DNA of 64,000 bases from an uncultured delta proteobacterium (GTDB lineage Bacteria; Myxococcota_A; Polyangia; Haliangiales; Haliangiaceae): contig CAVZFC010000035.1 in NCBI GenBank assembly GCA_963774445.1, forward strand, positions 5,470-69,469. Reading direction: 5' to 3'. Made by a program: the position numbers and the translations under genes. The notes beneath the pieces are model-generated. The model saw nothing but the letters and a program-made list of their open reading frames with translations, did not search any database and was not told the origin of the DNA. This document shows, piece after piece, positions 15,535 to 19,680 of the stretch (within the stretch, counting starts at the first letter, position 1; each line of letters opens with the position of its first letter).

Positions 15535-16698
15535 ATGTCCCGCCCCCCCGCGTCCCGACTCGAACCGTCTTCGCTCGCGCCGGCCACACTGTGCGCCCAC
15601 GGCGGCGCGCCGCGCTCGATCGATCTGGGCGGCGACGCGCGCGCGCACGTCAGCCCGATCGTGCAGACCACGGTGTTCGACTTCGCCACCATCGCCGAGT
15701 CGGAGCCGGCGCTGGGCGGCGACGGCTACGTCTACCGGCGCAACGGTATGCCCAACGCCGACGAGCTCGGCGCCGCGGTCGCGCTGCTCGAGGGCGCGGA
15801 GGCTGGCCAGGCGACCAGCTCCGGCATGGGTGCCGTCGCCGCCGTGGCCATGGGCCTCTTGGCGGGCGGAGCGCGAGTGCTGGTGCAGCGCGATGCCTAC
15901 GGCGGCACGCCGGCCTTTCTCGACGAGCTCGGGCGCTTCGGCGTCGTCGTGCGCGCCGTCAACGTCTACGATCCGGCCGCGCTCGAGCCCGCGCTCGATG
16001 GCGCGGCGATGCTGCTTTGCGAATCGATCGCCAACCCGCTGCTGCGCCGGGCGCCGATCGAGGCGCTGGCCAGCCGCTGTCATGCGCGCGGGGTCGCGCT
16101 GGTGGTCGACAACACCTTTGCCACGCCGCTGGGCGAGCGCCCGCTCGAACGCGGCGCCGACCTGGTGTTGCATTCGGCGACCAAGTTTCTCGGCGGCCAC
16201 CACGACGCCTGCGCCGGGGTCGTGGTTGGGGACGCCGCCCGGGTCGCCCGCGTGGGCACGGTCTGCCGGCGGGCCGGGCTGATCGCCTCGCCGCTGGACG
16301 CCTGGCTCGCCGTCCGCGGCATCCGCACCCTGGAGGTACGCATGCGGCGGGCGTGGCAGACCGCCGCCGAGCTGGCCGATCGCCTCGAGCAGTACCCGGC
16401 CGTGACCCGCGTGCACCGCGCCGACCGCTGCGCCCTGGTCACCTTCGACGTCGGCTCGCGCGCCGCCGCCGAGGCGGTGGTCGCCGCCTGCCGCCTGATC
16501 ACACTGTCGCCCAGCCTCGGCGGCACCACCACCACGCTGTCGCATCCGGCCAGCTCGTCGCACGTGGCGCTGCCCGCCGAGGCGCGCGCCGCCGCCGGCA
16601 TCGGCGACGGCCTCCTGCGCATGTGCGTCGGCCTCGAGGCGCCGGACGATCTCTGGCGCGACCTCGAGCCGGCGCTGGCTACAGCACCCCGGGGTTGA
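15535..16698 (+). CDS. PLP-dependent Cys/Met metabolism enzyme (cystathionine gamma-synthase/beta-lyase family)
   Basis: Trans-sulfuration family pattern, including the SATKFLGGH Lys motif. The 3' end overlaps the convergent glcE-like gene by 20 bp. Confidence 0.8.
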
Positions 16699-17975
16699 AG
16701 ATCCCCTTGGGGTCCAGCTCGTGGCGCAGGTGCTGGAAGTACGGCTCGAGCTGGGCGTTGGTGCTGCCCAGGAGGTAGGCGCCGGCCGCGATCGCCGCCT
16801 CTTTGACGGCGACGCAGAGAGGGCCGGCGGTGGCCTCGTCGAGCGGTGTTCCTTCGCCGTCGGTGAAGCCGGCGAACAGCACCGCGCCGTCGGCGTCGAA
16901 GCGGGAGATGTGCGCGCGGGTGTGGGCGCCGTTGGCGGTCGCGGCGTCGACCACGGCGTGGTAGACGCGGGCCAGCGCTGGCGGGGCGGCGCTGAGCTGG
17001 AGCTGGGGGCGCGGCACGGCGCCGCTCTGCCCGGTGCGCTGCTCCCACCAGGTGCGCGCCACCGATTCGGCCAGCGGGCGGCCGTTCATCGCCTCGCTGG
17101 CACTGGCGACCAGGTCGCGGTCGCACGCCGCCAGGTCGGTCGGGCCGGCGGTGGCGACCACCAGCACTGCCTCGCCGTCGCGGATCTCGATCGGTCCGAG
17201 GTGGGCGCGCGCCTCGGCGCCGTCGTAGACGCGGACCGCGGCCGGCGACGCTTCCTCGCGCAGCGCCAGGCGCACGGCGGCCAGCGCGGCGTCGACGTCG
17301 GGCAAGGCGTGGGCGGCCAGGTAGCGCGCCTCCGGCCGCCGGTGAATGCGCAGCACCGCCGAGGTGATCAGCCCCAGCGTTCCCTCGCTGCCGAGCAGCG
17401 CGCGCGCCAGGTCCGGAACCCGTCGACCGCCGCGGCGCCACCCGCGTGTGAATCGTGCGGCCGTCGGCCAGCACCGCCGAGATGCCGAGCACGGCGTCCT
17501 CGATGAAGCCGTGGCGCGGCGACGCCTTGCCCGGCGTGCGCACCGACAACAGGCCGCCCATCGTCGAGCCCAGGGTCGCCGGAGGGTAGTCGCCCATGCT
17601 CAGCCCGCGCGGCGACAGGATCTTCTCCAGCGCGATGGCGGTGATGCCGGCCTGCACGTGGGCGACCAGCGACGTCTCGTCCAGGTGCAGGACCTGATCC
17701 ATGCGCCGGATGTCGACGTAGATGCGGGCGCGATCGCGCAGACTGGCCATGCGCGGCGCGCGGGCGGCGTTGCCCACCGGGACCACGGCCAGCGACTCCT
17801 CGTAGGCCAGCCGCACCACGTCGGCGATCTCGGCCGCCGAGCCCGGGGTCACCAGCCAGGCAGGGGCCTCGTCGCCGGCCGGCGGCGAGGTGAGGGCGTC
17901 GAGTGCCTGGCCGCCGTGCACGTGCGACTCGCCGACAAGCTCGGCCAGGCGCGCGGCGATCTCCGGCCTGCTCAC
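16679..17975 (-). pseudogene. FAD-linked oxidase (GlcE/GlcD-like), apparent 1-bp frameshift near 17400
   Basis: The N-terminal FAD_binding_4 region (VVPVGN...RMD) lies in one frame. The conserved [22 protein letters not shown] continues in another frame. GTG start at 17975 overlaps the upstream gene stop (GTGA). Confidence 0.55.
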
Positions 17976-19680
17976 CTGCCGTCTCCGCGCGGCAGCGGCA
18001 GGCCCAGCTTGCCCGGGTTCATCAGGTTGTCCGGATCGAGCGCGTGCTTGAGGCCGCGGAGGATCGTCATCGCCTCGCGGTGCTCGCCGGCCATGTGTGC
18101 CGCCTTGAGCATGCCGACGCCGTGGTGGTGACTGATGGTGCCGCCGACCCGCGTGGTCGCGGCCAGCCCCTCCCGCCAGATGGCGTCGTAGGCGCGCTCG
18201 GCCGCGCGTCGATCGGGCGCGTGGGCGGCGAAGGTGAAGTAGATCGAGCAGCCCTCGGGGTAGGCGTGGGAGAAGTGGGCCATGACCATGGCGTGCTGGC
18301 CGATGGCGGTGCGCACCGCCTCGTACATGTCGAGCAGCCGCTCCCAGGTTGAACGCCACCTCCATGGTGTCGACGAAGGCGCCGTCGCGGAAGACCGGCG
18401 ACATCTTGTACGACACCGCGTAGCGGTGCTCGAGCCACTTCTTGCCCGGTTCTTCGCCCAGGTTGCGCGCCCCCGCGCGCTCGAGCTCGCCGAAGATCAG
18501 CCCGGCCTCGACCTCGGTGCGGATGCGCGCGCCCTCGACGCCGATGATCATGAGGCAGCCCTTGCGCGCGATCTTCTCGACCACCGAGCCGGCGAGGGTG
18601 TTGAGCAGGCGCGGGTGCGACAGTGCGGTGGCCATCGCCTCCTGGCGCAGCGTGCGGCGCAGGCCGCGAGTCGCCGCGCTGCGCTTGCCCAGCAGGCGCA
18701 GCGCCCGGCCCAGTATCCCGGCGCCGGCGCTCTCCTCGTCCGGGCGACCGAGGGGCGGCAGCGCGCCCGCGCCCGGCGGCGGCCCGGGCAAGCCGCGCTG
18801 CTCGGCCGGCGCGGCCTCCTCGTGGTCGCCGAAGCTGTGGATGAAGGTATCGAGATCGTCGTACAGGCGCACCGTGGCCGGCTTCAGGCCGCGCTGCATC
18901 ACCCGGCGGATCGCCTCGACCCCGTGGGCGACGCTGTCGACCTCGAAGCCGCGCAAGACCCGCAGCGCCGGCGCCGTGGCCAGGCGCAGGCGCGCCGAGG
19001 TGACGATGCCCAGCGTCCCCTCGCTGCCGAGGATCAGCTGGGTCCAGTTGGGCCCGCGCGTCGTGCGGGCGAGGCCGTCGGTCTGCACGATCTCGCCCCG
19101 GCCGGTGACCATGGTCAGCCCGGCGACGCGGTCCTCGACCTTGCCGTACTTGGTCGAACATCTGACCGGCGGCGCGGGTGGCAAGCCAGCCGCCCACGGT
19201 GGAGCAGTAGATCGACGACGGGAAGTTGCCGAAGGTGTAGCCGCGGCGCTCGAGCTCGCGCTCGAAGCGCTCGCCGTTGAAGCCGGCCTCGACGTCGCAG
19301 ACCATCTCGTCGGCGTGGACGCTGACCAGCTCGTCCATCCGCTTGAGATCGATGGTGATGCCGCGGCCCAGCGGGACGACGCCGCCGCACACGCCGGAGC
19401 CGCCGCCGTACGGCACCACCGGCACCTCCAGCGAGCGGGCCAGGCGGACGATGGCCGCCACCTCGCGGGCCGACTCGGGCCAGACCACCGCGCCGGGCAG
19501 GTAGTCGGGCGGGTCGCCTGCGCGCACCGCCAGGAGCAGCCGCGGCCACATGTCGCGGGCATAGGTGGACCGGTCGGTCTCCTCGATCGACACGCGCCGG
19601 GGGCCGACCACGCGGGCCAGCTCTCGGTGCAGCGTGTCGGGATCCAGGGCCGCGCGCGCCATGAGCGAGGCATGGTACAT
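17972..19680 (-). pseudogene. FAD-linked oxidase (GlcD-like), at least two apparent frameshifts
   Basis: Conserved [12 protein letters not shown] | [14 protein letters not shown] is split by one extra base near 19156. The C-terminal [17 protein letters not shown] is shifted again near 18340. N- and C-terminal domains are otherwise intact. Confidence 0.55.

Follow-up and report, generated by a model that had tools for sequence, protein, structure and literature searches.

Three frame breaks in a FAD-linked oxidase gene pair of an uncultured Haliangiaceae bacterium are very probably long-read consensus insertion errors

Two adjoining genes for flavin adenine dinucleotide (FAD)-linked oxidases lie on the minus strand of a 64,000-nucleotide stretch of contig CAVZFC010000035.1 (assembly GCA_963774445.1; an uncultured bacterium of the Haliangiaceae), which was analysed as a whole and is called the window below. 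In the deposited sequence both genes are interrupted by single-base frameshifts, and an earlier note made from the letters of the window had offered two explanations, namely a decaying glycolate/D-lactate oxidase locus or a cluster of sequencing errors. We consider it very probable that the three breaks are insertion errors in a long-read consensus, that the genes are intact and that the locus is an ordinary one. It is the sequencing-error alternative that fares well, with the extra bases absent from close relatives assembled from short reads and the genes evolving under purifying selection. The upstream gene (gene A, 17972..19680) is predicted to encode an AGPS-like FAD-linked oxidase (PF01565, 131.6 bits; PF02913, 125.3 bits) and the downstream gene (gene B, 16679..17975) a second FAD-binding subunit that is loosely GlcE-like (the same two families, 86 and 40 bits). 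Both Pfam domains (FAD_binding_4 and FAD-oxidase_C) exceed the gathering threshold in each product, which places the pair in the FAD-linked oxidase superfamily. The GTG start codon of gene B overlaps the TGA of gene A at 17975-17972, the coupling that had been described as GTGA, and its own stop codon occupies 16681-16679.

The window is 71% GC with a G+C content at third codon positions (GC3) near 0.95, so composition alone reveals the reading frame. A GC3 frame plot together with a seven-state Viterbi segmentation placed changes of the minus-strand coding frame at ~19150, 18344 and 17420, none of them accompanied by a stop codon, and found an ordinary gene boundary at 17975. When the DNA was read directly at these places, each break proved to be a +1 shift produced by one surplus T on the coding strand (a surplus A on the plus strand), which confirms that both oxidase genes are split by 1-bp frameshifts and fixes the three bases responsible. 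Site 1 (19157..19158; CAG ATG [T]TCG ACC AAG) splits GQM from STKYGK and site 2 (18352..18353; GTG GCG [T]TCA ACC TGG) splits MEVA from STWERLL, both in gene A, while site 3 (17417..17418; ACG GGT [T]CCG GAC CTG) separates STG from PDLARALL in gene B and is private to the window. This leaves gene A broken twice, into segments at 19680-19159, 19157-18354 and 18352-17972 that occupy three frames, and gene B once. Removal of the three Ts yields uninterrupted proteins of 568 and 431 residues with no stops, and PF01565 and PF02913 are complete in both, in keeping with the earlier observation that the domain content had survived. The repaired junctions of sites 1 and 2 agree with those of 40/40 homologues, with the invariant motifs exact, and more than 70 homologues lacking the extra bases match the repaired proteins exactly across the junctions. 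GC3 is 0.93-1.0 on both sides of every break, including downstream of site 3. All three lesions thus take the form expected of an artefact, a single-base indel within an otherwise uninterrupted and codon-biased open reading frame (ORF).

The earlier note had proposed a comparison with the orthologous locus in close relatives, and this shows both genes intact in two of them, L079 and L082, and sites 1 and 2 shared by a third, L065. The last (CAVUQH010000024.1, from MFD05684.bin.1.144) is the closest genome in the species collection, ~90% identical to the window and syntenic with it. Sites 1 and 2 each have the surplus T there as well. Gene B of L065 is uninterrupted (431 residues), and at site 3 it reads GGC CCC GAC (G P D) in a local sequence that differs from that of the window; over 3.1 kb containing ~320 substitutions, the site-3 base is the sole indel between the two. 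L082 (ENA ERZ27249683, contig k141_892871, assembled with MEGAHIT) is ~91% identical to the window and was reached through the cluster members of its Fe-S protein; there gene A is called intact at 568 residues and gene B at 431, the lengths of the repaired window genes. L079 (JGI Ga0114931_10062681), found by a pattern scan of the metagenomes of the Joint Genome Institute (JGI), reads gene A in one frame as far as residue 497; its identity is 91.9% with L065 and 88.4% with the window. Neither L079 nor L082 has the extra bases, and in both the flanks of sites 1 and 2 are identical to those of the window with only the T missing. Their genes A are 99.87% identical, and they therefore represent two independent assemblies of one species. 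That both are short-read assemblies is deduced from the MEGAHIT-style name (k141_) and from JGI practice; a search for literature on assemblies Ga0114931 and ERZ27249683 found nothing. Across the 3 kb of genes A and B in the window, L065 and L082, the three extra bases are the only indels.

The relationships among these lineages bear on how the shared bases could have arisen. In gene A, L065 is 93.6% identical to the intact short-read lineage and 91.6% to the window; a three-way comparison gives 213 unique differences for the window against 119 and 139 for the other two, and outgroup-rooted informative sites number 18 vs 6 vs 9. Since L065 is nearer to the intact lineage at this locus, real mutations would have to be gained in parallel, or exactly reverted, at both sites. 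Look-ups of window proteins by exact sequence brought up no record. A word-indexed protein search returned no match above 77% identity and missed even the intact 568-residue orthologue on k141_892871 (~92% identical), although the collection includes the proteins of that contig. This miss was considered as a sign that the short-read contig is itself broken and the idea rejected, because the contig shows gene A intact and the failure is a limitation of the search; the absence of close hits in that search is accordingly no evidence that close orthologues do not exist.

Every segment of genes A and B is under purifying selection in its own frame. With the window set against L065 and the frames taken from homology, the ratio of nonsynonymous to synonymous substitution rates (dN/dS) comes to 0.22, 0.14 and 0.17 in the three segments of gene A and to 0.21-0.23 in gene B; the wrong frames return values of 1.5-7.5. 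Lineage-unique synonymous and nonsynonymous changes in gene A number 34/2 in L065, 44/18 in the window and 25/11 in the intact L082; for gene B they are 44/27 in the window and 26/15 in the intact L082. Genes A and B thus show no drift of dN/dS toward 1, the relaxation expected of pseudogenes, and no further lesions (stops, other indels or loss of codon bias) were found when the 3 kb were searched against two relatives.

Extra bases of the same kind affect two other genes, and the window as a whole carries at least five within its 64 kb. Site 4 is an extra A (GAG[A]ATCGC, 41148..41149, plus strand) which splits a Ser/Thr kinase gene into parts starting at 40932 and at 41164 (the latter 41164..42993); once repaired, one Pkinase domain spans the junction, and the orthologues in L084 (Nanopore), L085 (MEGAHIT) and L086 (JGI) are intact at 685-703 residues without the base. 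Site 5 is an extra base in CTCGACC/TGA (5989..5992, ~5991, plus strand) at the end of a glycerol-1-phosphate-dehydrogenase-like (Fe-ADH_2) gene at 4678-5995. It puts the TGA stop out of frame, such that the GC3 signal ends at ~6022 but the ORF stays open through the next gene as far as 6553. Homologues have 438 residues and end in WLL[STAD]*, and L081 reads CTCAG-CTGA. The pattern of presence and absence is that of an artefact throughout, with sites 1-3 absent from L082 and L079, site 4 from L085 and L086 and site 5 from L081, and only sites 1 and 2 shared, by L065. Between 4.6 and 25.4 kb of the window, indels within genes that are not multiples of three occur, relative to the short-read contig, only at the sites described here, and the window is always the longer sequence. 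Four further frame switches (27389, 43654, 53389 and 55562) and an in-frame stop at 32794-32799 were examined as candidate lesions and set aside as normal gene boundaries.

The related long-read assemblies behave in the same way. L065 has a private extra base of its own, GAGACC[G]AGATC at ~21641, that splits a secreted lipoprotein gene (the orthologue of window 8078-9393) which is intact in both the window and L081. Two other loci from long-read metagenome-assembled genomes (MAGs), L054 (~12686) and L062 (~3313), also show +1 frame breaks; in L054 it is the orthologue of gene B that is broken, at GATTCTCG, an 8-mer that window site 4 also shows when read as its reverse complement, and which base is the extra one is ambiguous. 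In a frame scan of ~1.2 Mb from 73 related loci, such breaks were found almost only in long-read-only MAGs, and ~55 short-read loci contained no strong frame break. The frame errors seen, eight in all, are without exception +1, each of them an added base. Real bacterial mutation is biased toward deletions, the opposite of this all-insertion pattern.

On our reading, a lone T would have been extended to TT by a spurious base in a long-read, most likely Nanopore-only, assembly, and in the organism itself genes A and B would be intact and translationally coupled, encoding 568 and 431 residues. The recurrence of sites 1 and 2 in a related Nanopore-only MAG would then be a systematic and context-dependent error, possibly linked to methylation; we regard it as systematic because the local sequence at both sites is the same in L065. 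The source platform of the window and the cause of the context dependence are what we infer here. The Microflora Danica long-read MAGs, to which L065 belongs, derive from Nanopore-only metagenomes assembled with Flye and polished by one round of Medaka (PMC12313526). Residual or systematic indel and basecalling errors, with split genes as a result, are documented for Nanopore-only bacterial assemblies (PMC11170131; PMC11649196). The lesions resemble such consensus errors in being single-base indels in otherwise perfect ORFs that recur in the same sequence context, in their presence in the Nanopore-only L065 and absence from short-read relatives, and in their density of ~8-13 per 100 kb. They depart from the classic picture of deletions in long homopolymers in that all are insertions which turn a single A or T into two in DNA of 71% GC, and in that two errors stand at orthologous positions in different species, where they mimic a conserved frameshift.

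As to the context, GACC or AACC lies just 3' of the extra base at four of the five window sites. Simple motif or methylation explanations based on GTCGAC, GTYRAC, TCGACC, CCWGG or GATC were tried and dropped, as no motif covers all five. The window encodes an N6-adenine DNA methyltransferase (12160-13887, plus strand; Eco57I, N6_Mtase and TaqI_C domains), and a methyltransferase with Eco57I and TaqI_C domains is present in all genomes of the clade and conserved in L065, L081/L082 and L083. Bases modified by this enzyme might be a source of Nanopore miscalling, which we offer as a lead only. The contexts tied to the lead of context-dependent miscalling are ATGTCGACCAAG and GGCGTCRACCTGG.

Several points weigh against an origin in the long-read consensus. 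We infer the platform of the window, unlike that of L065, which is documented, and the evidence consists of assembled sequences rather than raw reads. No simple motif accounts for the sites: GTCGACC is correct in 50 instances in the window and in 21 in L065. The ±10-nt context of the private insertion in L065 is identical in the window and was read correctly there, so the errors are not fully deterministic. Of the five window insertions, three are packed into 1.75 kb (p ~0.02 by a rough scan statistic), a clustering for which locally low coverage or mixed strains might account. The tree argument given above is of moderate strength and is valid only at the level of the locus: lineage relationships vary from locus to locus, with the kinase gene pairing the window with L065 (90.9% vs 87.3%), which suggests recombination among the three close lineages or a near-trichotomy.

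Were the frameshifts real and recent, the locus would be an oxidase cluster decaying into pseudogenes, as the earlier note had envisaged. The ORFs are indeed broken in the deposited sequence, three times within 1.75 kb, and site 3 is private to a window for which there is no second assembly of the same strain. Sites 1 and 2, however, are common to a genome that is ~10% diverged, and dN/dS nevertheless stays at 0.14-0.22, with counts on the L065 branch of 34/2; stops and other indels are absent, GC3 is kept, and the closest short-read allele is intact. Decay would also require real frameshifts in the kinase and glycerol-1-phosphate-dehydrogenase-like genes, amounting to ~7% of genes, all of them +1, in a free-living high-GC genome. 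We therefore regard decay as highly unlikely, and the suggestion of a decaying locus finds no support in dN/dS values of 0.14-0.23, the lack of added lesions and the intact short-read relatives. The note had further reasoned that frameshifts at the same places in several strains would speak for pseudogenes or programmed events, a rule that misleads here: two positions are shared with L065, but L065 is a Nanopore-only MAG, and the short-read allele closest to it is intact. Two variants were likewise rejected. An ancestral pseudogene, broken before the window and L065 separated, is incompatible with dN/dS and the branch counts. Against a recent gene transfer that would have carried the broken allele from one of these two genomes to the other stands dS between sites 1 and 2, which at 0.28 is as high as elsewhere.

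That two Kofleriaceae species truly carry the extra Ts in their DNA, and that gene A is decoded through two successive +1 recoding events, seems to us extremely improbable, even if two independent assemblies sharing both Ts, with strong purifying selection in all three frames, form the signature that recoding is formally expected to leave. We tested sites 1-3 for the marks of programmed +1 frameshifting, a slippery P-site codon with a slow A-site codon and conservation across the clade, and found neither. None of the P-site codons (AUG, GCG and GGU) is able to re-pair after a +1 shift, and the zero-frame A-site codons are UUC, UUC and UCC, with UUC being the preferred Phe codon and neither a stop nor rare. 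Past site 1 the zero frame remains open for ~1.1 kb, and the sites have no signal in common. More than 70 homologues lack the bases, as does the nearest allele, where the flanks are identical; they are present in 2 genomes and absent from 71 more distant loci. Similar private extra bases affect other genes of both long-read assemblies. We know of no precedent for a bacterial gene with two +1 events in succession. Programmed frameshifting of the prfB type shares with these sites the +1 shift needed for a conserved protein and, here, a position common to two genomes. It differs in that the present sites have no slippery codon, in-frame stop, hungry codon or shared stimulatory element, and that the nearest relatives do not have the base; programmed frameshifting was thus rejected on codon context. 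A mixed origin, in which sites 1 and 2 are systematic errors and site 3 is a genuine strain-specific frameshift, draws on the fact that the window alone has site 3, in a local sequence that differs from both relatives. Set against this, site 3 shows the lesion, T to TT before C, that is seen in the four further spurious insertions of the window, gene B is no more relaxed on the window branch (44/27) than gene A, with L082 at 26/15, and GC3 is unchanged downstream of the site, all of which leaves a mixed origin very improbable. Such small probability as is left for genuine recent mutations falls chiefly on site 3.

The identity of the two genes was examined with family models and homologues. 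The homologues of gene A include 120 intact proteins of 545-590 residues from Kofleriaceae, Haliangiales and other Myxococcota, which match 97-99% of its length at 64-77% identity and which JGI names alkyl-dihydroxyacetone phosphate (DHAP) synthase. The best relative of gene A with a solved structure is the alkyl-DHAP synthase 2uuu (E = 3.8e-64). The earlier designation of the genes as glcD/glcE/glcF-like holds at the level of the superfamily but not for GlcDEF proper, as the NCBIfam equivalog cut-offs are missed widely: gene A scores 188.7 against TIGR00387 (GlcD, cut-off 567.9), gene B 59.1 against NF008439 (GlcE, cut-off 284) and the Fe-S protein 45 against NF008434 (GlcF, cut-off 333). By sequence comparison, the pair is an AGPS-like or GlcD-like FAD oxidase with a second FAD-binding subunit, and it is kept across the Kofleriaceae. 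As in GlcDEF (E. coli glcD, glcE and glcF), two adjoining genes with FAD_binding_4 and FAD-oxidase_C domains are accompanied by a gene for an Fe-S CCG-domain protein, and the order A-B-Fe-S is contiguous in some relatives (L008, L020, L030 and L059). Unlike GlcDEF, the proteins score far below the equivalog cut-offs, gene A carries a long insertion and is nearer to alkyl-DHAP synthase, and within this clade the Fe-S gene lies behind a convergent gene for a pyridoxal phosphate (PLP)-dependent enzyme. AGPS itself (PDB 2uuu and 4bby) has the same VAO/PCMH-type FAD fold as that predicted for gene A. The match to gene A, however, covers mainly the FAD domain (residues 19-280), and gene A has two partners of predicted function that AGPS lacks, one a further FAD subunit and the other an Fe-S protein.

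The neighbouring genes are arranged as the earlier note had described. The Fe-S/CCG-domain protein, earlier called glcF-like, is encoded at 14407..15510 on the minus strand (PF02754 and PF13183), and the PLP-dependent Cys/Met-metabolism gene at 15511..16698 on the plus strand (PF01053, E = 4.5e-89), convergent with gene B, which it overlaps by its last 20 bp (16679-16698). The Fe-S and PLP genes diverge, and taken at full length their ORFs meet at 15510/15511 with zero spacing. With the calls made in relatives (Fe-S, 345 residues; PLP, 387 residues), ~90 nt separate the two divergent genes, which places the true starts at internal positions; for the Fe-S gene, which has 345 residues in relatives and 338 in the deposited annotation, this is probable. 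The 338-residue protein, P0280, equals that of the window and is encoded, like P0282, P0285 and P0286, on the 340,027-bp source contig. On the other side, a 3-hydroxyacyl-CoA dehydrogenase gene (19689..20585, plus strand; PF02737 and PF00725) diverges from gene A.

The same order recurs in relatives. Nearly all of 73 related loci have the arrangement 3-hydroxyacyl-CoA dehydrogenase (-), A (+), B (+). The Fe-S gene comes immediately after B in L008, L020, L030 and L059 and lies farther downstream in other loci. The pair PLP (-)/Fe-S (+) downstream of A and B is kept in L001, L065 and L082, and in L082 the PLP gene has the same orientation, the same 20-nt overlap with gene B (8747-8766) and the same 4-nt overlap between A and B. 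The earlier note spoke of a displaced glcF. A PLP gene does intervene, but no lesion is involved, and what had looked like displacement is, on comparison of L001, L065 and L082, a gene order conserved within the clade and not damage. In some Kofleriaceae, A and B are apparently fused (proteins P0004, P0005 and P0006, 962-976 residues). L065 has a 592-bp insertion with an ORF of 178 codons between gene B and the PLP gene (13001-13592) that is found in neither the window nor L082. Next to the Fe-S gene, window 13890-14400 holds a small ORF for a Cys-rich secreted protein or lipoprotein (13908-14303, 131 residues), also present in L065; ~430 nt of this region, including that ORF, are missing from the short-read relative L081.

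For the scanning of genomes, these results mean that insertion errors in long-read-only MAGs can recur at orthologous positions and, together with purifying selection, mimic conserved or programmed frameshifts. Conservation across strains is therefore insufficient evidence of such events unless at least one assembly comes from an independent sequencing technology. Other broken genes in the window should be treated likewise, given the number of such errors in its 64 kb. For the biology of the organism the consequence is small: the locus would be an ordinary, intact oxidase cluster of a kind that is widespread in the Kofleriaceae.

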